Shown here one piece after another: positions 3,385 to 61,925 of a stretch of DNA of 64,000 nt. Numbering within the stretch: the first letter of the stretch is position 1; every line of letters begins with the position of its first letter. Source of the stretch: a bacterium (GTDB taxonomy: Bacteria > Patescibacteriota > Minisyncoccia > Phycocordibacterales > VMGT01); assembly GCA_030697645.1 (NCBI GenBank), contig JAUYPI010000018.1, forward strand, positions 10,457 to 74,456, in the 5' to 3' direction. The notes under the pieces are model-generated. The model saw only the letters and a program-made list of their open reading frames with translations. It was not told where the DNA came from and ran no database searches. Both the position numbers and the translations under genes were made by a program.

Positions 3385-4158
3385 TTAGGCATTGACGACA
3401 TCACTGCGTCCGGAGAAAAGCGAAGCGCGCACATTTGAGACTGTCCGGAGCTGCTCTGGCGTGTTGACGCCGAGGACTTCTTCGGGGAGCGCGGCGGGCA
3501 GGGCGAGAATAGAGCGGCCGCGCCCGGTGAGCACGCGCACGGCGTCAGTGAGATAATACTCGCCGTTTGCGCTGTTCGGCCGGAGGTTTTTGAGCGCAGA
3601 AAAGAGCGCTCGCGCACGATAGCAGTAGGCGCCCGCGTTGATCTCGCGGATCTCTCGCTCCTCCTCAGTCGCGCTTTTCTCTTCTTCAATCCGCACAACG
3701 CGGCCCGAGGCGTTCCGGACGATGCGGCCGTAGCCGGTTGGATTATCGAGGAGGGCGGTAAGAAGTGCTCCTGTCGCGCGTGCCTTTCGGTGCGCGACAA
3801 AAAGGCGCGCGAGGGTCTCGGAGCGGATAAGCGGCGTATCGCCGTAGCGGATGAGGACGTCACCGTCAAATCCTTTGAGGAGGCTCTCGGTAATGGAGAC
3901 CGCATGCCCAGTGCCGCGCTGTTCCTCCTGTCTTATAAACTCAATAGGAAGCTCCGAGTACGCACGCACGGCCCCGGCGACTGCCTCGGCCCGATAGCCG
4001 ACGACGAGAATGACGCGCTGGGGTGCGAGCGGCACAATGGCTTCGAGCACATGCGCGATCAATGGCTTGCCATCGAGTTCGTGGCAGACTTTCGGGATGT
4101 CGCCACCCATACGGGTACCTTTACCCGCCGCAAGGATTATTACTGCAAGGGAGCGCAT
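3385..4158 (-). CDS. sugar-phosphate nucleotidyltransferase (GlmU N-terminal uridyltransferase-domain-like), with no acetyltransferase LbH domain
   Basis: LAAGKGTRM nucleotide-binding motif near the N-terminus. The length fits a single NTP-transferase domain. The start is taken at the Met preceding the motif. Confidence 0.7.
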   Translation of the reverse strand: MRSLAVIILAAGKGTRMGGDIPKVCHELDGKPLIAHVLEAIVPLAPQRVILVVGYRAEAVAGAVRAYSELPIEFIRQEEQRGTGHAVSITESLLKGFDGDVLIRYGDTPLIRSETLARLFVAHRKARATGALLTALLDNPTGYGRIVRNASGRVVRIEEEKSATEEEREIREINAGAYCYRARALFSALKNLRPNSANGEYYLTDAVRVLTGRGRSILALPAALPEEVLGVNTPEQLRTVSNVRASLFSGRSDVVNA

Positions 4159-4250
4159 AGAAAATATGCACTTTCTGTAACTTCGCACGCCTGTGCGACG
4201 CTACATGCCTGGGCGCTACTCTCGCGAGCCCGCGTGAGATACAATGCTTA

Positions 4251-4430
4251 GGCCCCGTCCATAAATACCTTCCCCATCTCGCACTCACTGCACGCCCTTA
4301 TCGAGCATCGTGCTCAATCGCGAAATCCTCATCGTATCTCGATACGTCTCGGATTCGCTCATTCCGCGCCAAGCTGCATCAGGCCATGCACTGAGCACGA
4401 TATTAGGGGAACTTATTTATGGACGGGGCC
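4251..4430. mobile_element. MITE-like structured element, copy 1, with 17-bp terminal inverted repeats (GGCCCCGTCCATAAATA ... TATTTATGGACGGGGCC)
   Basis: Perfect terminal inverted repeats read directly from the sequence. The internal 145 bp is about 90% identical, in reverse orientation, to the copy at 60669-60845, and contains further internal inverted repeats. Confidence 0.75.
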
Positions 4431-5948: not shown

Positions 5949-6023
5949 GCGAGCGTAGTTCAGTGGTAGAACGCTGACCTGATAAGTCAGAGGTCGAAGG
6001 TTCGATTCCTTCCGCTCGCACCA
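5949..6023 (+). tRNA. tRNA-Ile (anticodon GAT), CCA encoded
   Basis: Cloverleaf: acceptor GCGAGCG/CGCTCGC, D-arm GTAGTTCAGTGGTAGAAC, anticodon stem-loop CTGAC-CTGATAA-GTCAG, T-arm GAAGGTTCGATTCCTTC, 3' ACCA. Confidence 0.85.
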
Positions 6024-6046: not shown

Positions 6047-6929
6047 GGAAAGGCGGCGGAGCCGCACCGCTCAAAACCGCAAAAGAACCTGGAGAAAAAC
6101 ATCGGCTCGCCTGCCCGCCTCTGGAGGGAACCATATTTTAATTTTGGGGGAAGAAAATTTTTTAATCCTATGAATAAGAAGGTTACTTTTTTTATAGGTT
6201 TATTAGGATATATATTCGCGGGAATAATAGCGCGATTAGTTTTTAGTAAATCTTCTTTTTATCCAGGGTTAGGATTACAGACTGCCGACTACTCAATTGC
6301 CAATTTAGCTTTTCTATCAATTATTCCCGCGATAATTTTTGTATTGTTTTTTTTCATTTTTCATTATCTATTTAAAGATAGAGAAAATATTATTTTAAAG
6401 TCAAGCGGTTTTATTTTAGTATTTTCTTCTATCTCAATTTATATATGGCGTACACTTTTAGTTTTTGGAATAGGTAGTAATGATCTTCCTATCGATCCAA
6501 TAATAGGATTATTGGGATTTGTTGGAACGCTTACGACATTTATTTATCTCTCCTATCATTCTCTCCGTCTTTATAAAAGTAGCAGCCGTTTATGGGTAGC
6601 CGAACTGATTGCATCAATAGTTGTTTTAGTATCAGGGACTATTTTTAGTGCTTCTGAGTTGTCATATGTAGGTCTAGTCTTACTACCTGCGAGCCTCGTA
6701 TTTTTCCTATTTTCTTTTTTCACCCTACTTATTAAATCATGGAGAGAAACACATAAGTCATCATTTTTCTTCTCTATTCTTGGTCTACTCGTCATAATTT
6801 TCTCAACAGGGCTAGTTTTTGTCATTAAAGTACTTTCCGAATGTTGCCACTGATTATTAACAACTTTTAAGATGGGTCGCCGCCAAAGAAAAATTGGAAA
6901 TTGTTATCGGTGCGGCTCCGCCGCCTTTC
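6047..6929. mobile_element. AT-rich inserted segment bounded by perfect 23-bp inverted repeats (GGAAAGGCGGCGGAGCCGCACCG / CGGTGCGGCTCCGCCGCCTTTCC), 24 bp downstream of tRNA-Ile
   Basis: The inverted repeats were read directly at 6047-6069 and 6907-6929. The enclosed DNA is ~30% GC against ~60% flanking. Confidence 0.6.
6170..6853 (+). CDS. hypothetical multi-pass membrane protein (AT-rich, probably foreign)
   Basis: Six or more hydrophobic segments and Ile/Phe/Leu/Lys-rich composition. It lies inside the inverted-repeat-bounded segment. Confidence 0.55.
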   Translation: MNKKVTFFIGLLGYIFAGIIARLVFSKSSFYPGLGLQTADYSIANLAFLSIIPAIIFVLFFFIFHYLFKDRENIILKSSGFILVFSSISIYIWRTLLVFGIGSNDLPIDPIIGLLGFVGTLTTFIYLSYHSLRLYKSSSRLWVAELIASIVVLVSGTIFSASELSYVGLVLLPASLVFFLFSFFTLLIKSWRETHKSSFFFSILGLLVIIFSTGLVFVIKVLSECCH

Positions 6930-27620: not shown

Positions 27621-27660
27621 GGCGAATTTCCAATTTCCAATAACCAATTTCCAAACAATT
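27621..27660. repeat. Heptad-repeat fragment (B-type units) upstream of tpiA
   Basis: GAATTTCCAATTTCCAATAACCAATTTCCAAACAATTTTGC. The ORF track translates it as a spurious N-terminal extension of TpiA. Confidence 0.6.
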
Positions 27661-27695
27661 TTGCTTCAGCGTGCCGCGTGCGCTACACTGGGGCC

Positions 27696-28469: not shown

Positions 28470-28493
28470 TCCTCAATCATCAGGCGTTGTCAG

Positions 28494-28625
28494 AATTTTC
28501 AATGCTCAATTTTCAATTTTCAATCAATTTTCAATTACTCAATTTTCAAACACGACGCAGCCCGTCTTTGAATCATTGGGACATTGAAAATTTATTGGAA
28601 ATTGGAAATTGGAAATTGGAAATTT
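28494..28625. repeat. Palindromic heptad-repeat element, hybrid: A-type left arm and B-type right arm (GGAAATTGGAAATTGGAAATT)
   Basis: GAATTTTCAATGCTCAATTTTCAATTTTCAATCAATTTTCAATTACTCAATTTTCAAACACGACGCAGCCCGTCTTTGAATCATTGGGACATTGAAAATTTATTGGAAATTGGAAATTGGAAATTGGAAATTT. Confidence 0.85.
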
Positions 28626-29784
28626 AGACCGTGCACATATTCCGAGCATTCGAGACGCTGCCAATCTTCGAGGCAAGCGGATAGTGCTGCGCCTGGACTT
28701 GAATGTCCCTCTGACTCCGCAAGGCGAGGTGGCGGACGATTTTCGTATTCGCAAGGTGTTGCCGACGCTCGCGCTGCTCGGTGAGCGGGGAGCACTGGTG
28801 CGCGCCGTGAGCCACATTGACGGTGCGGGGGGGTCGCTGCGCGCGGTTGCGGACTATATGGTTCGGCATCTTGGCGTCGCGCTCACATTTGTGCCGGAAA
28901 TGGCGCACCCGCAAGCTGCACTCGTACTCGAGCGCCAGAGTCCGCGCGAGATTGTGCTTTTTGAAAACATCCGCCGCGAGCCCGGGGAAGAGCGTAATGA
29001 CCCGGCGTTTGCCGAGCGTCTCGCTGGCCTCGGGGATGTATATGTCAACGACGCGTTCTCCGTGTCGCATCGCCCCCACGCCTCGATTGTCGGCGTGCCA
29101 AAACTCCTTCCATCCTATACGGGGCTCCAGTTTACTGATGAAATCGAACACCTCTCGCAGGCCTTTGACCCGCCGCGCCCGTTTATCTTTATCATCGGCG
29201 GCATTAAATTTTCGACGAAGTTGCCTCTCGTGCGTAAGTTCCTCGATATCGCCGATGCCGTGTTTGTCGGCGGCGCGCTTGCAAACGACATTTTCCGGGC
29301 GCGCGGGCTCTCGGTGGGGAAATCGGTTGTTTCAGAGGAAGCGCTTGATCTATCTGGCATCGTTAATCACCCAAAACTCCTCACGCCCTCGGACGTCCGG
29401 GTGCGTCCGGCGGATGATCCGCGCGAAGAGGCAGCGCACCTCGCGCGGCCGGAGAATGTCAGCGCCGACGAGATTATTATGGACGCGGGGCCAGCGACAC
29501 TTGAGGCGCTTCGCGAGAGCATCGGCTCGGCAGCGTTCATTGTCTGGAATGGCCCCCTTGGCGATTACGAACATGATTTCGAGGAGGGGACCGAGGCGCT
29601 TGCGGCTTTGATCGCTGCGGCACTCGGGCGCTCGGTCGTTGGCGGCGGCGATACCATTGCCGCGATCAGTCGCCTCAAACTTGAAGCAAAGTTCACCTTT
29701 GTCTCCACCGGCGGTGGCGCGATGCTCGACTTTCTCGCCGATAGCATGCTGCCGGGTCTTGAGGCGTTGATGGCGCGTGTGTGA
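28609..29784 (+). CDS. pgk: phosphoglycerate kinase. The true start is probably GTG at 28631; the first codons of the ORF are translated repeat
   Basis: KRIVLRLDLNVP N-terminal motif, hinge and C-terminal GGGDT / TGGGA nucleotide-binding motifs. Confidence 0.9.
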   Translation: MEIGNLDRAHIPSIRDAANLRGKRIVLRLDLNVPLTPQGEVADDFRIRKVLPTLALLGERGALVRAVSHIDGAGGSLRAVADYMVRHLGVALTFVPEMAHPQAALVLERQSPREIVLFENIRREPGEERNDPAFAERLAGLGDVYVNDAFSVSHRPHASIVGVPKLLPSYTGLQFTDEIEHLSQAFDPPRPFIFIIGGIKFSTKLPLVRKFLDIADAVFVGGALANDIFRARGLSVGKSVVSEEALDLSGIVNHPKLLTPSDVRVRPADDPREEAAHLARPENVSADEIIMDAGPATLEALRESIGSAAFIVWNGPLGDYEHDFEEGTEALAALIAAALGRSVVGGGDTIAAISRLKLEAKFTFVSTGGGAMLDFLADSMLPGLEALMARV

Positions 29785-30009
29785 AGTCGGTTAGTTTTCA
29801 CTCTCCGGGGTTTTTGGGGTTGGGGACGACCACTTCTCCGACTGAATACCCAATATCAGCTTTCATCTTGCGCGGACTTTTTCGCGCCTCAATGCCTCTC
29901 TGTATCGCGCCCACTAAGGCCTCTTCAAATTCGCGTGTCTTGGAAATTTTTCTAGTTTTTCTGCTTGAAACCGCCAGAACATGTCTTTGACGGCTTTCTC
30001 GCTAAAATA

Positions 30010-30786
30010 TCACACGCTATATTCCCAATTTCTAATTTTTTCTGCATACTGCTCCTGCAATATAAGATATTCCTCTTTCAGTAAGAGCAACAATTGGGTG
30101 TCGGGGTAGCACAAACGAAATTCTTGATCACGTTGGTATGAGTATGGCGCGAGAAAATTTTTAATTTCTACAAAAAGATCCAACTCGGGTAAATAGAAAT
30201 CTGGCGTATAATTTTGTCTTAAAAGCCGAAACGTCTTTGGTTGATGTACCCATCTAATACTAAAGAAATCAAGCAGGCGGGCAAAGTTGGCCTCCCACCG
30301 ACTATAGAAATATATATCTCCGAGATCAGCACGCACGCCAGCCTTGGCGCGTGCGGCTCGTGGAGACGTTGGTTTTCCACCAATTACTTGCATCGCGCAC
30401 CTATTGCTGCAAAACTTTCGAGGCTGCCATCGCGCAAATACAATTTCTTTGCCGCACAGTGCGTTTTCACACCTCCCTCGTACAGGAGGTACCCGGATGA
30501 CACCTTTATGCTTATTGGGGCGACCGCGTAGTGCGTTTGCAATTTTATGCCTCGTGGCCTCAGTGTGGTGACGCAGAACGTTATTATACATCGCCGCGCA
30601 AGATTGAGAACAAAACTTTTTAGGGTCGGAGGGATTAACGACGAACACCCGACCACAGGCAACTTGTAGACAAGTTCGTTCCTCCTTTTTGCACAAACTA
30701 CCTAACTTACCTTCCTTCCAACCGTTGATAGAAATCACGCTTTGTTTTTCTCTGTATTCCAAAGAATCGTAAAAAGCGTATCTCAT
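30010..30786 (-). CDS. PD-(D/E)XK-nuclease-like protein with two N-terminal Cys-rich (zinc-ribbon-like) repeats. AT-rich, and abuts the tRNA-Thr 3' end
   Basis: C-terminal YTPDFYLPELDLFVEIK fits the D...E-x-K restriction-endonuclease-like motif. Tandem CxxC...FCSxxC repeats (KKFCSQSC, RKFCSNRC). ~40% GC. Confidence 0.55.
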   Translation of the reverse strand: MRYAFYDSLEYREKQSVISINGWKEGKLGSLCKKEERTCLQVACGRVFVVNPSDPKKFCSQSCAAMYNNVLRHHTEATRHKIANALRGRPNKHKGVIRVPPVRGRCENALCGKEIVFARWQPRKFCSNRCAMQVIGGKPTSPRAARAKAGVRADLGDIYFYSRWEANFARLLDFFSIRWVHQPKTFRLLRQNYTPDFYLPELDLFVEIKNFLAPYSYQRDQEFRLCYPDTQLLLLLKEEYLILQEQYAEKIRNWEYSV

Positions 30787-30789
30787 AGA

Positions 30790-30863
30790 GCCGGTGGAGG
30801 GACTCGAACCCACAAAGCCTTCGCTTTACAAAAGCGCTGCTCTACCAATTGAGCTACACCGGC
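30790..30863 (-). tRNA. tRNA-Thr (anticodon TGT), probable
   Basis: Minus strand: acceptor GCCGGTG/CACCGGC, D-arm GCTCAATTGGTAGAGC, anticodon stem-loop GCGCT-TTTGTAA-AGCGA, T-loop GGTTCGAGTCC. The variable region is one or two nt longer than canonical, so the fold is slightly irregular. Confidence 0.65.
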
Positions 30864-30963
30864 GCCTCTCAACCACCACACTAACACAAAAGCCCTGCCT
30901 CTTGCAGGGCTGTCGGCACTCTTTGCTCTCCACTCGCCGCTTTCTCGTTCTACCCTCCACCCT

Positions 30964-31347: not shown

Positions 31348-31508
31348 AGAAGTTCTGCGCTAGAAGTCATGGTATGATTACAGTGTAGCATACTGACGCA
31401 AAATATGCTCCAGCTCTTTCCACAATTTCGTATTCATTCGCTTCCAGCGCCGCGGTTTGGAAGTTGGAGGTCATAATTTTAGCGCATAATGCAAAATAAC
31501 ACAGTAAA

Positions 31509-31667
31509 AATTCCAAGCTCCAACCAACAAATTCCACGTAAATTCCAAGCTCCAAAAAACAAGCTCCAAACAAATTCCAATGATTCAAATTCCAATTTCC
31601 AAACACGCACGTTTGAGATTTGGAGTTTGAGATTTGTTTGGAAATTGTTTTTTGGAATTTGGAAATT
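31509..31667. repeat. Palindromic heptad-repeat element, B-type, upstream of smpB
   Basis: AATTCCAAGCTCCAACCAACAAATTCCACGTAAATTCCAAGCTCCAAAAAACAAGCTCCAAACAAATTCCAATGATTCAAATTCCAATTTCCAAACACGCACGTTTGAGATTTGGAGTTTGAGATTTGTTTGGAAATTGTTTTTTGGAATTTGGAAATT. Confidence 0.85.
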
Positions 31668-31693
31668 CATTTTGCTTTTTGTACTACCATACC

Positions 31694-47438: not shown

Positions 47439-47482
47439 CCAAACAAAACCGTCCTGTCTGAAGCAGGACGGTTTTGTTTGGT
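47439..47482. terminator. bidirectional rho-independent terminator
   Basis: CCAAACAAAACCGTCCTG-TCTGAAG-CAGGACGGTTTTGTTTGG, a perfect 18-bp stem. Its 3' end abuts the tRNA-Leu 3' CCA. Confidence 0.8.
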
Positions 47483-47565
47483 GCCCAGGAGAGGATTTGA
47501 ACCTCCACGGGATTGCTCCCATACGCCCCTCAAGCGTACGCGTAAACCAGTTCCGCCACCTGGGC
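47479..47565 (-). tRNA. tRNA-Leu (anticodon GAG), long variable arm, CCA encoded
   Basis: Minus strand: acceptor GCCCAGG/CCTGGGC, anticodon stem-loop TACGC-TTGAGGG-GCGTA, variable arm TGGGAGCAATCCCGT, T-arm GGAGGTTCAAATCCTCT, 3' ACCA. Confidence 0.85.
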
Positions 47566-53336: not shown

Positions 53337-53708
53337 CTACATAGTAGCCCTATATGCCTTTATCCTATCCTTATCTTCGTTTTCCGATTCACCCTTGAAA
53401 TAAATCTCAATAAACTCGACCTTCAGTGTTTGGACATGGAAAGCGTAGATGATCCTGATCCCACTTTTCACTCCACGTCCCTTCAATGCCTTACAAGCAA
53501 ATTTTTTGAGTTTGCAAATTAGAACCTCGTCAGTACAGAATTGCGGCATCGGGAAGATTGCCTGCTTATTGATCTTTTGGGTGTGGTAAAGCTCAGTGGC
53601 GAACGCCTTGGCAACCTCAATATCTTCGTTGAGGGAGTGAAATTTCTTGAGAAGTCTCTTGAGATCACGCTCAAATTCTTCCGTGGAGCTATAAGTCAGT
53701 TTCGTCAT
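53337..53708 (-). CDS. RelE/ParE-fold toxin (ParE_toxin-like)
   Basis: C-terminal LKGRGVKSGIRIIYAFHVQTLKVEFIEIYFKG resembles the ParE/RelE core (Y-R-I-I-Y ... hydrophobic ... K). It overlaps the upstream HTH-antitoxin gene by 20 nt. ~35% GC. Confidence 0.55.
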   Translation of the reverse strand: MTKLTYSSTEEFERDLKRLLKKFHSLNEDIEVAKAFATELYHTQKINKQAIFPMPQFCTDEVLICKLKKFACKALKGRGVKSGIRIIYAFHVQTLKVEFIEIYFKGESENEDKDRIKAYRATM

Positions 53709-54468
53709 AGATCCGTACGGAAGTTTCCGGAGTTCGATAAAAGACAGATTCGTATTTTATGATTTGCCCCTCTTCGGTCCCAAGCCAGGGCACATCTTTA
53801 TGAGAGTAGTCGCTCAATTCAGTCGCGGTTTTATCGGAAAGTCGAGAAAGCACTTCGTCTATATGTTTGATTTCTTGGGCATTTAGGACGGAAATATCAG
53901 CATCTCTTCGCGGAAGATACTTGGTTTGCTCGTGTTGAAAATACTTGCTCTTGACCGTCTCTAGTTCGCCTTTCTTCTCCATTGACTCAACGATCTTCTT
54001 AAACTCAACTGGAGTCGGTCCGAAATGATTCCGTGTGTATGTTGCTCCAATGAGCTGTTCTTCAAACTTTTCGTAAAAATCAAAGTCAATAAAGTAGAGT
54101 AGCTTATACAGCACCGTCATACCGACATTTGGTTTACTGCCGACTTTCTTAAGTATATAAAGCAAAACCTCCTTGAACTTTTTAACATGACGTTGGGGCA
54201 CATCAATACGCATCTCCTGTTTCGGGGAGCTGTGGGCTTTTTCACTTAAAGAAACTTTGACGTCCGGAGCTACCTTGCCTGCAATCAGATCTGAAAATGA
54301 AATATTAAAAATTTGGGCGATCTTGTTCGCCTGGGAGAGAGTGAGTTCTTTTGCCCCCTTCTCAATTTCTATATAACTCGCACGAGAAACACCGATTTTA
54401 TCAGCCACAAAAGCCTGCGAAAGCCCCTGCTTATTACGCAGTTCTAGTAGAAAATAGTGCTTAATCAT
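53689..54468 (-). CDS. XRE-family HTH fused to a Panacea (DUF4065, SocA-like) antitoxin domain
   Basis: N-terminal HTH (LRNKQGLSQAFVADKIGVSRASYIEIEKG). The C-terminal VLYKLLYFIDFDFYEKFEEQLIGATYTRNHFGPTPVEF matches the DUF4065/Panacea pattern. Confidence 0.65.
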   Translation of the reverse strand: MIKHYFLLELRNKQGLSQAFVADKIGVSRASYIEIEKGAKELTLSQANKIAQIFNISFSDLIAGKVAPDVKVSLSEKAHSSPKQEMRIDVPQRHVKKFKEVLLYILKKVGSKPNVGMTVLYKLLYFIDFDFYEKFEEQLIGATYTRNHFGPTPVEFKKIVESMEKKGELETVKSKYFQHEQTKYLPRRDADISVLNAQEIKHIDEVLSRLSDKTATELSDYSHKDVPWLGTEEGQIIKYESVFYRTPETSVRIYDETDL

Positions 54469-57370: not shown

Positions 57371-57510
57371 AATTTCCAAATTCCAAAAAACAAGTTCCAA
57401 ACAAATCACAATACTCAAAATCCAATTTCCAAACACGACGTGCGTGTTTGGGATTTGATGCATTGAAATTTGAAATTTGTTTGGAACTTGTTGGTTGGAG
57501 CTTGGAGTTT
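57371..57510. repeat. Palindromic heptad-repeat element, B-type, upstream of pilM
   Basis: AATTTCCAAATTCCAAAAAACAAGTTCCAAACAAATCACAATACTCAAAATCCAATTTCCAAACACGACGTGCGTGTTTGGGATTTGATGCATTGAAATTTGAAATTTGTTTGGAACTTGTTGGTTGGAGCTTGGAGTTT. Confidence 0.85.
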
Positions 57511-57668
57511 ATGACTCGGAGTCTCGGGTCGGCAATTTCGTTATTCACCGTGCTCATATTCTTGCTCCACTCGAATGCGGGAAGCGTACGAGGTTCTCAA
57601 CAGGCGCATGGTAGAGCTCGCTCACGCGGCGCGGTATACTAGAGGTGCGGCAGACCTTTGCCTCTACC

Positions 57669-61413: not shown

Positions 61414-61484
61414 GGGCTCATAGTAAAGTGGTATTACGCGGCATTCGCATTGCCGAGTCCCGGGTTCGATTCCCGGTGAGTCCA
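61414..61484 (+). tRNA. tRNA-Ala (anticodon CGC), G3.U70 present
   Basis: Acceptor GGGCTCA/TGAGTCC with a G3.U70 wobble, D-arm GTAAAGTGGTATTAC, anticodon stem-loop CGGCA-TTCGCAT-TGCCG, T-arm CCGGGTTCGATTCCCGG. Confidence 0.8.
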
Positions 61485-61529: not shown

Positions 61530-61925
61530 ATGACAAGGCGAAACATTTTAGCGGTCATTATCGGATTGATTATTGGGTTTGTTCCTGCTTACACGAGGTT
61601 GCTTTTTTATGTCGGTAAACCGTTCTTAATGTTCTTTAACCCAATAATTAGTAGTTTAATTGCAGAGTGGTTATACTTCTTGATTTTGGGGATTGCGGTA
61701 TTCGTTGCAAGTTTTCCTAAATCGTATTACCTAATTCCTGTTGTTGGATTACCTATTGCAATAGTATCCGCATTGAATAATTATTTGACCCTATCGGTAT
61801 GGACAAGCACAGTATCGGTGTTTCTATCCTTTATGGTTTTCGGAAGTATTGGTTATTTTATAGCAAAACTGATATCTGTAAGTTTTGCCAAACCACCAAC
61901 TCTTGTAAAATCTGGTTCCAATTAA
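61530..61925 (+). CDS. hypothetical membrane protein (AT-rich, directly after the tRNA cluster)
   Basis: Four hydrophobic helices. ~35% GC against ~60% background. Confidence 0.5.
   Translation: MTRRNILAVIIGLIIGFVPAYTRLLFYVGKPFLMFFNPIISSLIAEWLYFLILGIAVFVASFPKSYYLIPVVGLPIAIVSALNNYLTLSVWTSTVSVFLSFMVFGSIGYFIAKLISVSFAKPPTLVKSGSN

Follow-up and report, generated by a model that had tools for sequence, protein, structure and literature searches.

The window, i.e., the whole stretch of 64,000 nucleotides that was analysed, carries a tRNA-Thr(UGU) gene followed on the same strand by an open reading frame for a nuclease (Table 1). The tRNA gene is complete, contains no intron, and does not encode the CCA end. 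The start codon of the nuclease agrees with the N-terminus conserved in its family, M..(F/Y)Y.S.EY, and is separated from the tRNA by 1 nt according to ARAGORN, or by 2 nt after the discriminator base. The original prediction, made from the letters of the DNA, of a nuclease-fold gene at the exact 3' end of tRNA-Thr was confirmed in position and in the assignment to the PD-(D/E)XK superfamily; its ORF length of 259 aa and gap of 4 nt gave way to the values reported here. A terminator-like hairpin belonging to the upstream 127-aa ORF bounds the tRNA-nuclease unit on its upstream side. On the other side, the terminator scan detected no terminator-like site in the spacer that precedes the convergent pgk gene.

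Table 1. Position of the tRNA gene, the nuclease gene with its protein modules, and the flanking features in the window.
Feature	Position	Strand	Evidence or remark
Terminator-like hairpin of upstream 127-aa ORF	30891-30911	minus	27 nt before tRNA; terminator scan
tRNA-Thr(UGU)	30788/30789-30863	minus	ARAGORN; Rfam RF00005, 61 bits
Nuclease ORF, 258 aa + stop	30010-30786	minus	ATG at 30786
N-terminal helical region, residues 1-32	30691-30786	minus	alignment and model (helices 2-32)
Cys4 finger 1, residues 33-71 (C39, C44, C59, C63)	30574-30690	minus	invariant Cys; motif ...KxxCSxxCA
NUMOD3-like helix, residues 72-91	30514-30573	minus	Pfam NUMOD3 matches
Cys4 finger 2, residues 100-135 (C106, C111, C126, C130)	30382-30489	minus	invariant Cys; weak YacG match
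Flexible linker, residues 136-150 (GGKPTSPxAA)	30337-30381	minus	pLDDT < 50 at residues 138-147
PD-(D/E)XK nuclease domain, T7 endonuclease I type, residues 151-258	30013-30336	minus	
Catalytic E165	30292-30294	minus	
Catalytic D196	30199-30201	minus	
Catalytic E207	30166-30168	minus	
Catalytic K209	30160-30162	minus	
Spacer, nuclease stop to convergent pgk stop	29785-30009		no tRNA-tail remnant, no terminator-like site

The GC content of the nuclease gene was 44.7% (GC3, 42.6%) against 53.6% for the window, in place of the approximately 40% in a 60% GC genome first estimated, and the neighbouring genes showed a GC of 52-62% and a GC3 of 58-72%. Its GC3 was the sixth lowest among 57 ORFs (z = -1.55); the gene thus lies below its surroundings in GC, yet is not extreme. 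Across the family, the nuclease fell below its host by 9 points on average in GC (41 of 43 loci) and by 15 points in GC3 (39 of 43 loci), and its GC correlated with that of the host (r = 0.88). The low GC had been taken as a sign of foreign origin; recent import into this genome is not supported by it, as the deficit is family-wide and tracks host GC.

Neither a promoter of its own nor a Shine-Dalgarno sequence was found for the nuclease gene of the window. About two thirds of the loci have an extended -10 promoter whose end lies 6 nt upstream of the ATG; the remaining loci, among them the window, have an ATG that abuts the tRNA. The mRNA of the window nuclease is presumably co-transcribed with the tRNA and would be near-leaderless after tRNA 3' processing, which in zero-gap loci would itself produce the 5' end of the mRNA. 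Leaderless expression of the nuclease is predicted from this arrangement.

The two Cys-rich repeats and the C-terminal catalytic motif named in the original prediction were both present. All eight finger cysteines were invariant among 21 aligned homologues, as were the catalytic residues E165, D196, E207, and K209 in the 21 aligned sequences, which carry the motif YTPDFYLP...VEIK. The N-terminal region conserves (F/Y)Y.S.EY..KQS and W23, with Y11, Q15, W23, and G26 invariant in the alignment. The AF2 model of the window protein had a pLDDT of 81, with low confidence in the linkers between modules; the sequence of the linker at residues 136-150 is highly conserved despite its low pLDDT. In the model, the nuclease domain adopts a restriction-endonuclease-like alpha/beta fold according to fold matches, and the fingers show a beta-hairpin knuckle followed by a helix. 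This geometry and the weak Pfam matches of the window protein to zf-CGNR, zf-FCS, and YacG make a treble-clef-like finger more probable than a classical zinc ribbon.

The family relationships were obtained from profiles and per-member scans, not from single-sequence searches: with the window protein alone, Pfam gave no match at E <= 0.01, and the Pfam, NCBIfam, and PDB searches yielded sub-threshold zinc-finger matches at most. NUMOD3 matched the window protein short of the cut-off (E = 0.067) and 8 of the 21 homologues at E <= 0.01 (best, 1e-5), while the per-member Pfam scan detected zf-CGNR in 15 of the 21 members (best, 2.9e-6). PHROG profiles of the DNA-binding regions of HNH endonucleases matched residues 22-133 (5e-7 to 5e-5), and PHROG nuclease matches were also obtained. 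The N-terminal part resembles, at the level of these profiles, the NUMOD3 and zinc-finger DNA-binding modules of phage homing endonucleases. PF05367 (Phage_endo_I) was matched by 10 of the 21 homologues (best, 1.8e-5) and, as a precomputed match, by one database homologue, and the family profile retrieved T7 endonuclease I from the PDB at E = 0.003. E165/D196/E207/K209 align with E20/D55/E65/K67 of T7 endonuclease I, in which YTPDFLLP..VETK corresponds to YTPDFYLP..VEIK of the nuclease. By these comparisons, the C-terminal domain appears closest to T7 endonuclease I. The original prediction had offered no named family for the protein; the nuclease domain can be named by its closest match (T7 endonuclease I, PF05367), and the family as a whole is undescribed.

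A total of 386 homologues, all full length, were found, and homologues with 45-58% identity are spread over many Patescibacteria lineages. The source databases annotate them as 'hypothetical protein', NCBIfam and PADLOC (cut-off, E <= 0.01) gave no match, and literature searches found no description of the family. The window nuclease is an intact member of this undescribed Patescibacteria family. In all 58 genome loci with readable upstream sequence, which represent more than 12 candidate phyla, the nuclease was immediately preceded by tRNA-Thr(UGU) in the same orientation, at a distance of -1 to 81 nt, and it likewise followed tRNA-Thr(UGU) directly in 37 metagenome contigs. The downstream neighbours varied and included 16S rRNA, tRNA-Tyr, tRNA-Thr(GGU), and protein genes, such as pgk in the window. 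The linkage was kept even at loci in which a terminator lies behind the tRNA and the nuclease has a promoter to itself, so sharing of a promoter fails to explain it. The nuclease domain also has hundreds of phage relatives, of which 1 of 80 lay next to a tRNA gene.

Next, sites with and without the nuclease were compared. Among metagenome contigs containing a common 5' half of tRNA-Thr, 37 carried the nuclease and 33 did not, a ratio biased towards alleles known to carry the gene, as the scan used a Nealsonbacteria-type tRNA 5' half; another metagenome scan with the 26-mer of the window's own tRNA-Thr returned no contig. Some filled and empty contigs bear identical tRNA-Thr alleles. The empty spacers measured 188-507 nt between thrU and 16S and 5-76 nt between thrU and thrT, and both sites also occurred in filled versions that are syntenic with the empty ones. 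In locus L211, the insert is followed by a short tRNA-tail repeat and then by the same rRNA promoter that lies behind the tRNA in the empty locus L169. The closest relatives of the window (tpi-pgk, 78-86% nucleotide identity) lack the unit downstream of pgk. Neither a conserved motif 3' of the tRNA nor an alternative endonuclease family was detected in the empty sites, which contained unrelated GDH-like, ArsR-like, and transposase-like genes instead. The comparison shows that orthologous sites of related genomes differ in whether they contain the cassette.

Fragments of tRNA genes around the insertion sites were scored by position weight matrices with an empirical background, after a loose regular expression for the T-arm and acceptor had been abandoned as noisy and insensitive. 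Remnants of the tRNA 3' tail were detected in the spacer between tRNA and ATG in 14 of 81 filled loci (0.3 expected) and after the stop codon of the nuclease in 13-14 of 81 (1.2 expected), against 2 of 33 empty loci, and 5' remnants upstream in 20 of 79 filled loci (2.4 expected) against 2 of 32 empty ones. The remnants are foreign tRNA-Thr(UGU) alleles with compensatory changes in the stems, and their end-points point to the D-loop, anticodon loop, and variable loop. Because they are diverged alleles, a search for near-exact downstream repeats of the 3' end of each resident tRNA found none. In locus L196, 40 nt of native tRNA precede a complete foreign tRNA and the nuclease. Displaced 5' and 3' pieces of other tRNA-Thr(UGU) alleles are thus overrepresented at filled sites. 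The direct repeat of the tRNA-Thr 3' end for which the original prediction suggested looking downstream of the gene was not found in the window, although such remnants occur in relatives; the best matrix score in the spacer was -3.8 (threshold, 0.94). A matrix match at 3866-3885 of the window was dismissed as a chance hit in GC-rich coding sequence.

Evidence for lateral transfer came from locus L230. Compared with its close relative L215, its flanks were 95-100% identical, whereas the segment from about position 26 of the tRNA to position +650 of the nuclease was only 44-84% identical. The same segment was 92-100% identical to L231 and L179, the flanks of which could not be aligned. The mosaic spans the 3' two-thirds of the tRNA and the 5' part of the nuclease gene, showing that this portion of the tRNA moved laterally along with the cassette. 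Such a mosaic could also result from DNA uptake followed by ordinary homologous recombination, with no contribution by the nuclease. Approximately 10% of the copies were degraded by nonsense mutation, frameshift, or truncation (L026, L049, L056, L057, L058, L060, L062, L173/L183, L195, and L197), and L181 retains a relic of 19 codons from the 3' end of the gene. The dN/dS of intact pairs was 0.08-0.16. These comparisons show decay in some lineages and strong purifying selection on intact copies. The cross-lineage identity of the nuclease (45-58%) was close to that of the housekeeping protein PGK (48-58%), and this conservation, together with the low dN/dS, would also fit a gene that benefits its host.

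Taken together, the nuclease ORF is probably a free-standing, homing-endonuclease-like gene within a cassette composed of tRNA-Thr(UGU) and the nuclease, a reading drawn from comparative sequence data. The homing or selfish element suggested in the original prediction is favoured by the strict linkage to the tRNA, the presence and absence at orthologous sites, the tRNA fragments, the lateral mosaic, and the decayed copies. The mobility of the copy in the window is inferred from the family, as the window has neither remnants nor a close relative with an empty orthologous site.

The modular DNA-binding N-terminus, tethered by the flexible linker to the nuclease domain of T7 endonuclease I type, would bind the tRNA-Thr(UGU) gene and break either the gene itself or the DNA just beside it; the end-points of the remnants place the putative break in the region of the D-loop, anticodon loop, or variable loop. 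The break would then be repaired from a cassette-bearing copy, with the conserved tRNA, plus 16S rRNA or neighbouring tRNAs where available, serving as homology arms. A working tRNA-Thr(UGU), or the 3' part of one, comes with the cassette, so that spread would at no point cost the host this essential tRNA. The resident tRNA is the same in filled and empty sites, which differ only in the sequence 3' of the tRNA. If the target lay wholly inside the tRNA, avoidance of self-cleavage would be unexplained, since the tRNA shows no visible immunity change; immunity of carriers would accordingly need a bipartite site spanning the tRNA end. A simple one-step homing model does not account for the order of complete tRNA, tail remnant, promoter, and nuclease. 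A fuller account is possible and is put forward tentatively: the nuclease may recognise and break the single-copy tRNA-Thr(UGU) gene at the anticodon-to-variable-loop region, and the self-contained cassette may overwrite the essential tRNA of the host, acting as a gene-replacement drive in bacteria, which would supply a functional substitute for the gene that it destroys and leave 5' and 3' tRNA fragments behind. Such a nuclease would be the first homing endonuclease built on a domain of T7 endonuclease I type.

The gene could alternatively be a housekeeping nuclease of the CPR for DNA repair or recombination, inherited vertically, e.g., a Holliday-junction resolvase, which merely lies in the tRNA-Thr transcription unit. 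Junction resolution is the function of T7 endonuclease I, the nearest named relative, and PHROG 9019 bears a resolvase annotation; strong purifying selection (dN/dS of about 0.1), an identity on par with PGK, and a GC that tracks the host also agree with such a role. However, about half of the contigs with the common tRNA 5' half lack the gene, several of them with an identical tRNA allele, and it was not found downstream of pgk in the closest relatives of the window; the pseudogenes, which make up about 10% of the copies, the mosaic transfer, the tRNA fragments at the flanks, and the tRNA-Thr linkage kept despite a separate promoter also speak against inheritance of this kind. In addition, modules that read sequence, such as NUMOD3 and zinc fingers, characterise homing endonucleases and are not typical of structure-specific resolvases. 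This explanation is considered unlikely. An RNA-processing enzyme for the co-transcribed tRNA-Thr precursor is the least credible of the explanations weighed, as the E/D/E/K metal-binding tetrad matches the one in T7 endonuclease I and other DNA nucleases, the tRNA has no intron to remove, half of the related genomes do without the gene, and it is separately transcribed in many loci.

The PD-(D/E)XK fold common to restriction enzymes, the patchy distribution with low GC, and the hundreds of phage relatives of the nuclease domain would suit a solitary nuclease with a defence or toxin role, either restriction-like or of the abortive-infection kind, that by chance occupies a hot spot beside the tRNA. 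Against this stand the lack of a PADLOC match, of a methylase, antitoxin, or other partner in any locus, and a position exact to a narrow nucleotide range at a single isoacceptor, unlike that of defence islands, and both the tRNA fragments and the tRNA segment transferred with the gene suggest that recombination took place at the tRNA itself; a defence function is thus very improbable. Scarcely credible, too, and slightly behind it, is the last surviving cargo gene of an integrase-type island once integrated in the 3' end of tRNA-Thr, for which the partial direct repeats bracketing the insert in some loci could pass as attL and attR. No tyrosine or serine integrase was detected in any locus in the interval from the tRNA to the remnant or to the downstream gene, and none of the roughly 95 loci showed another island gene. 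A single gene of about 0.8 kb with short spacers makes up the insert, the repeats are diverged foreign alleles instead of identical att cores, the upstream 5' tRNA fragments are not a product of integrase crossover, and the window has no repeat at all. On the same grounds (no integrase, a single-gene insert), the cargo end of a degraded island, which the original prediction had also allowed, is not supported; the window copy is a real and intact gene, neither island cargo nor a pseudogene. A group I intron was rejected as well: the Rfam search found no intron, nothing is missing from the tRNA, and the remnants do not rebuild exons.

If the homing reading is true, a widespread and unannotated selfish element of Patescibacteria targets a tRNA gene with neither an intron nor an integrase involved and avoids killing its host by supplying a tRNA or tRNA end itself, a strategy documented earlier for protein genes of fungal mitochondria. 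It would add a new catalytic scaffold, that of T7 endonuclease I, and a new domain order to the homing endonucleases, and the compact enzyme of about 260 aa could be a site-specific nuclease. The cassette would also be a natural marker for DNA exchange between uncultivated CPR lineages and would account for the 'hypothetical protein' that recurs beside tRNA-Thr, in some cases within the rRNA operon leader, among hundreds of metagenome-assembled genomes.

T7 endonuclease I (gp3; PF05367; PDB 1M0D and 2PFJ) is a structure-specific junction resolvase of 149 aa without DNA-reading modules. It is the best match of the C-terminal domain in sequence and fold, and the catalytic tetrads align; the Patescibacteria nuclease, however, adds about 150 N-terminal residues with two Cys4 fingers and a NUMOD3-like helix, and is chromosomal in the CPR and tied to a tRNA gene. 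Tyrosine-integrase islands in tRNA genes are likewise inserted at the 3' end of a tRNA and lie between an intact tRNA and a partial 3' repeat; they differ from the present loci, which have no integrase, diverged foreign repeats, 5' fragments as well, and a one-gene insert.

The modular DNA-binding elements of the present nuclease (NUMOD3-like, zinc finger) appear to resemble those of I-TevI and I-BmoI-type enzymes. SegB of phage T4 is a free-standing endonuclease encoded among tRNA genes that promotes the inheritance of itself and the neighbouring tRNA region (PMC2330249). The embedding of a free-standing gene among tRNA genes is similar, whereas SegB is a GIY-YIG enzyme with an N-terminal nuclease that acts in phage co-infection, and the present nuclease has a C-terminal domain of T7 endonuclease I type and resides in a cellular chromosome. 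Unlike phage free-standing homing endonucleases of this kind, the phage relatives of the Patescibacteria family almost never lie beside a tRNA gene. I-Ssp6803I (PF11645), mentioned in PMC13011429, is the PD-(D/E)XK homing endonuclease of the cyanobacterial tRNA-fMet intron. It belongs to the same nuclease superfamily and is likewise a mobile element associated with a tRNA gene, but it is encoded in a self-splicing group I intron of the anticodon loop and has no zinc fingers, whereas the Patescibacteria nuclease lies outside any intron and the function of the tRNA is preserved by carrying or abutting a complete tRNA.

The mORFs of fungal mitochondria (Allomyces atp6; Glomus atp6, atp9, cox2, and nad3) are endonuclease ORFs at the 3' end of an essential gene, which bring a foreign replacement 3' end, leave the native 3' end as a downstream remnant, and show evidence of lateral transfer (PMC3630166). 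The tRNA-Thr loci display the same order of tRNA 5' part, foreign 3' part, nuclease, and tail remnant; this layout, with the foreign 3' end upstream and the displaced 3' remnant downstream, was seen in relatives and is absent from the window, the copy of which has no remnant. The present element differs from the mORFs in that the host gene is a tRNA gene of a bacterial chromosome, the nuclease is of the PD-(D/E)XK type instead of LAGLIDADG or GIY-YIG, and replacement of the whole tRNA and 5' remnants also occur.

The tRNA-Thr(UGU) gene and the nuclease ORF behind it lie between tpiA-pgk, convergent with the ORF, and a 127-aa ORF with no Pfam match, which is followed by smpB and tmRNA. A longer frame starting at GTG 30813, overlapping the tRNA, was rejected because the N-terminus of the family aligns from the ATG. 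In the window scan, promoters and terminator-like sites were absent both from the gap between tRNA and ORF and from the sequence past the ORF, and no remnants (displaced fragments of a tRNA-Thr allele) were seen around this intact, zero-gap, promoter-less copy, the mobility of which is suggested by its family. The original prediction of a Cys-rich nuclease adjacent to tRNA-Thr was confirmed, although its numbers for protein length and distance from the tRNA were slightly off (see the table).

Single-sequence searches with the window protein gave only zinc-finger and NUMOD3 matches, all sub-threshold. In PHROGs, residues 159-245 matched phage endonuclease and 'Holliday junction resolvase' families (4e-13), and residues 22-133 matched non-catalytic parts of phage HNH homing endonucleases. 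Among 21 aligned homologues, eight Cys, arranged as two CxxxxC...CSxxC units, and E165, D196 (YTPDFYLP), E207, and K209 are invariant, and a member-by-member Pfam scan matched zf-CGNR in 15, Phage_endo_I (PF05367) in 10, and NUMOD3 in 8 of the 21. Therefore, the predicted Cys-rich repeats and nuclease domain were correct, and the nuclease domain, part of a combination previously considered not assignable to a named family, can be named.

The protein database contained 386 homologues, essentially all of which were from Patescibacteria, of full length, at 45-58% identity, and unnamed or annotated as 'hypothetical'. A scan of one genome per species yielded 63 Patescibacteria loci, plus nuclease-domain-only relatives in other phyla; the lineages carrying the gene include Nealson-, Gribaldo-, Wolfe-, Kaiser-, Taylor-, Harrison-, Staskawicz-, Nomura-, Yanofsky-, Lipton-, Morani-, and Berkelbacteria. 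A same-strand tRNA-Thr with anticodon TGT was located upstream in 59 of the 60 loci scanned for tRNAs, and in 61 of 63 when L062 and L063 were added (L numbers denote the loci and contigs compared with the window), the two exceptions beginning at a contig end. The gap from tRNA to start codon was -1 to 81 nt. The downstream neighbours varied among tRNA-Tyr (4-31 nt beyond the gene in L001, L008, L042, L043, and L048), tRNA-Thr(GGU), the 16S rRNA gene, and protein genes (pgk in the window). In a Nealsonbacteria-like clade (L226, L181, L206, and others), the unit is placed in the leader of the rRNA operon; the 16S genes of some such contigs (e.g. L226) are broken into conserved blocks by long insertions, which are known in CPR rRNA genes. 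Downstream of the nuclease in L006 (~6815-6890) and L014 (~4200-4352), tRNA-Thr(GGU)-like starts (GCCGA(C/T)GTAGCTC...) were seemingly interrupted, which may represent the divergent group I introns reported in Patescibacteria tRNA-Thr(GGU) (PMC13011429). Relatives of the nuclease domain, some also with one finger, were detected in more than 317 phage contigs (25-42% identity), and one of 80 adjoined a tRNA. This sole case (viral contig L158, 5415-7199) has tRNA-Pro and tRNA-Asn on either side within a cluster of 21 tRNAs, and a tRNA-Thr(tgt) follows ~400 nt downstream.

Fifty-six loci had a gap of 13 nt or more; in 44 of these, a -10 hexamer with 5 or 6 of its 6 positions matching was found, 40 of the 44 having a TG extension, and the same test succeeded at 3% of random positions. 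The end of the hexamer is 4-9 nt (in most cases 6 nt) ahead of the ATG, and thus a leaderless nuclease mRNA is predicted; some spacers also hold a hairpin terminator behind the tRNA. The remaining 25 loci, including the window, lacked a promoter and had gaps of up to 12 nt, and their nuclease message would derive from the tRNA transcript, with its 5' end produced by tRNA 3' processing. Promoter sharing cannot be the reason for the linkage, because the linkage also holds where the gene has its own promoter.

The GC content of the nuclease ORF was 44.7% (GC3 42.6%), compared with 53.6% for the whole window and 52-62% (GC3 58-72%) for pgk, tpi, smpB, and other neighbours; its GC3 was the sixth lowest of 57 non-overlapping window ORFs (z = -1.55). 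Over 43 loci, nuclease GC followed that of the flanking ORFs (r = 0.88, slope 0.67) at a mean deficit of 9 points in GC and 15 in GC3, being lower in 41 and 39 of the 43 loci, respectively. The low GC of the window copy is therefore a family trait: the predicted foreign composition held in so far as GC was below that of the neighbours, but as a sign of recent import into the window genome it was rejected. Selfish genes commonly show such a low GC.

In this genome, ORFs of low GC seem to recur downstream of tRNAs; two of them, shortly past tRNA-Ile and tRNA-Ala(cgc), have predicted hydrophobic N-termini and no Pfam match. With the LAGLIDADG_3 ORF, the window has a second homing-endonuclease-like gene that touches a tRNA. 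The HNH ORF and the antitoxin-like gene ~0.5 kb downstream on the same strand were both compositionally low. The palindromes consist of TTGGAAA/TTTCCAA heptamers and resemble a dispersed repeat of the MITE or REP type; copies shared 92-93% identity with one at 605-707 of the related contig L161, where coding DNA was 83-86% identical.

Features located in the window
Feature	Position	Strand	Remarks
tRNA-Thr(UGU)	30788-30863	minus	ARAGORN; Rfam 61 bits
Nuclease ORF, 258 aa	30010-30786	minus	same strand as tRNA-Thr(UGU); ATG 1 nt past tRNA end
Terminator-like hairpin	30891-30911		precedes tRNA-Thr(UGU)
LAGLIDADG_3 ORF, 234 aa	47530-48234	minus	Pfam 9.5e-9; GC3 0.47 (lowish); 3' end overlaps 5' end of tRNA-Leu(gag)
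tRNA-Leu(gag)	47479-47565	minus	
HTH + SocA/Panacea antitoxin-like gene	53689-54468	minus	GC 42%
HNH endonuclease ORF, 154 aa	55004-55468	minus	GC 41%
tRNA-Ile	5949-6023		
ORF past tRNA-Ile	6170-6853	plus	32% GC
tRNA-Ala(cgc)	61414-61484		
ORF past tRNA-Ala(cgc)	61530-61925	plus	36% GC
Imperfect palindromes	438-537, 27625-27662, 28489-28629, 31508-31672, 57411-57513		AT-rich, intergenic

The closest relatives of the window (PGK 84% and 81% identical; tpi-pgk 78-86% nt identity) had neither tRNA-Thr nor nuclease downstream of pgk, and no contig matched the window's own tRNA when this was used for a scan. With the 5' half of a Nealsonbacteria-type tRNA-Thr(UGU), the scan returned 80 contigs, of which 37 were filled (nuclease directly behind the tRNA), 33 were empty (no nuclease despite at least 250 nt of sequence downstream of the tRNA), and 10 were too short to judge. 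Identical tRNA alleles occurred in both classes (L185 = L172, L182, L189, L200, L215, and L221; L169 = L211 and L235). Orthologous sites were seen in both states. The tRNA-16S spacing was 188-507 nt at empty sites, and filled sites read tRNA, 59-74 nt, nuclease, 303-470 nt, 16S; similarly, tRNA-Thr(UGU) and tRNA-Thr(GGU) were 5-76 nt apart at empty sites, with filled counterparts in L167 and L171. Past the insert in L211, a short tRNA-tail copy is followed by the rRNA promoter (TTGACA...) that is also present behind the tRNA in empty L169. The empty site L185 has a 445-aa ORF (+91 to +1429 from the tRNA end) with an N-terminal HTH-like region resembling IS transposase, and the 3' side of this tRNA may attract other insertions too.

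In six loci of the genome set, a 16-25-nt tRNA-Thr 3' remnant, comprising T-loop, T-stem, acceptor strand, and discriminator, was located 0-20 nt from the nuclease stop codon (p ~1e-3 each). These remnants diverge from the resident tRNA (that of L003 has a compensatory T-stem change), and five of the six are closer to tRNA-Thr(UGU) tails of other lineages than to tRNA-Thr(GGU) tails. At a PWM threshold of 1e-4 per site, 3' tail remnants were counted in the tRNA-ATG spacer of 14 of 81 filled loci (0.3 expected by chance) and within 150 nt past the stop in 13-14 of 81 (1.2 expected), and within 250 nt past the tRNA in 2 of 33 empty loci. Remnants of the 5' part were present within 300 nt upstream in 20 of 79 filled (2.4 expected) and 2 of 32 empty loci. 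The 5' remnants consist of acceptor and D-arm, often reaching the anticodon loop, and their end-points cluster in the D-loop (~position 19-22) and anticodon loop (~35-41); the 3' remnants start near the variable loop. In the clearest case, L196, a 40-nt piece of the native tRNA-Thr(UGU) stands 12 nt ahead of a foreign tRNA-Thr(UGU) that is complete and has a rare T-loop; behind the latter come a promoter and then the nuclease. In L181, classed as empty, the last 19 nuclease codons persist ~820 nt downstream of the tRNA.

The nuclease and its upstream flank were discordant in a comparison of 561 locus pairs. L230 and its close relative L215 shared 95-100% nt identity in the flanks (100% at the 16S 5' end), 44-84% from tRNA position ~26 to nuclease nt +650, 98-100% from +654 to +903, and 46-58% past a break inside the downstream tail remnant. 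The tRNA, spacer, and first ~450 nt of the L230 nuclease were 92-100% identical to L231 and L179, the upstream flanks of which were 67-68% identical over aligned parts and unalignable beside the tRNA. As judged from these alignments, L230 is a recent recombinant in which the 3' two-thirds of the tRNA and the 5' part of the nuclease were imported jointly. L215 (+920 to +1229 from the tRNA end) and L230 (+925 to +1229) also have a small ORF, located between the tail remnant of the nuclease and the promoter of the rRNA operon, that is ~50% identical amid surroundings of 95-100%; it is a second hyper-divergent or exchanged segment beside the cassette. Degraded copies carried nonsense codons (at the invariant residues W23 in L026 and Q15 in L049) or frameshifts (L058, L060, and L062), had lost N-terminal sequence (L057) or ended ahead of the ExK motif (L056), and were truncated in L173/L183, L195, and L197 of the metagenome set; some may be assembly errors.

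The fixed site beside a conserved gene, presence/absence among relatives, co-transferred flanks, decayed copies, architecture of the homing-endonuclease type, and persistent AT bias combine into the sequence signature of a free-standing homing-endonuclease-like element, with putative cleavage activity and target. Of the two origins originally predicted, a selfish element was supported and the cargo of an island was rejected. The mosaics could also have arisen by ordinary recombination after DNA uptake, and the high conservation and low dN/dS (0.08-0.16 in intact pairs) would fit a gene that benefits the host in some way equally well.

For the homing-like element, the cassette would bring along either a whole tRNA-Thr or the 3' part of one, thereby keeping the essential gene whole and leaving the displaced native pieces as remnants. 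No immunity change was visible in the tRNA, identical alleles occurring with and without the nuclease gene. If the nuclease binds at the tRNA, its cut, or some portion of its site, would be at or beyond the tRNA 3' end, as with I-TevI-type enzymes, which bind and cut at separate places. The element was not described in a recent survey of Patescibacteria tRNA introns (PMC13011429), nor was a description found in the other literature searched.

In summary, the element is probably a homing-endonuclease or mORF-like cassette (after the mobile ORFs of fungal mitochondria) on a domain of the T7 endonuclease I type, tied to tRNA-Thr(UGU). Free-standing homing endonucleases have DNA-reading modules as beads on a string with a tethered nuclease, and the Patescibacteria protein has the same layout with the nuclease at the C-terminal. 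The mobile ORFs of fungal mitochondria use the same trick as the cassette, keeping the host gene whole with foreign replacement C-termini in place of tRNA parts (PMC3630166), and for the location among tRNA genes T4 SegB, itself a free-standing homing endonuclease, is a precedent (PMC2330249).
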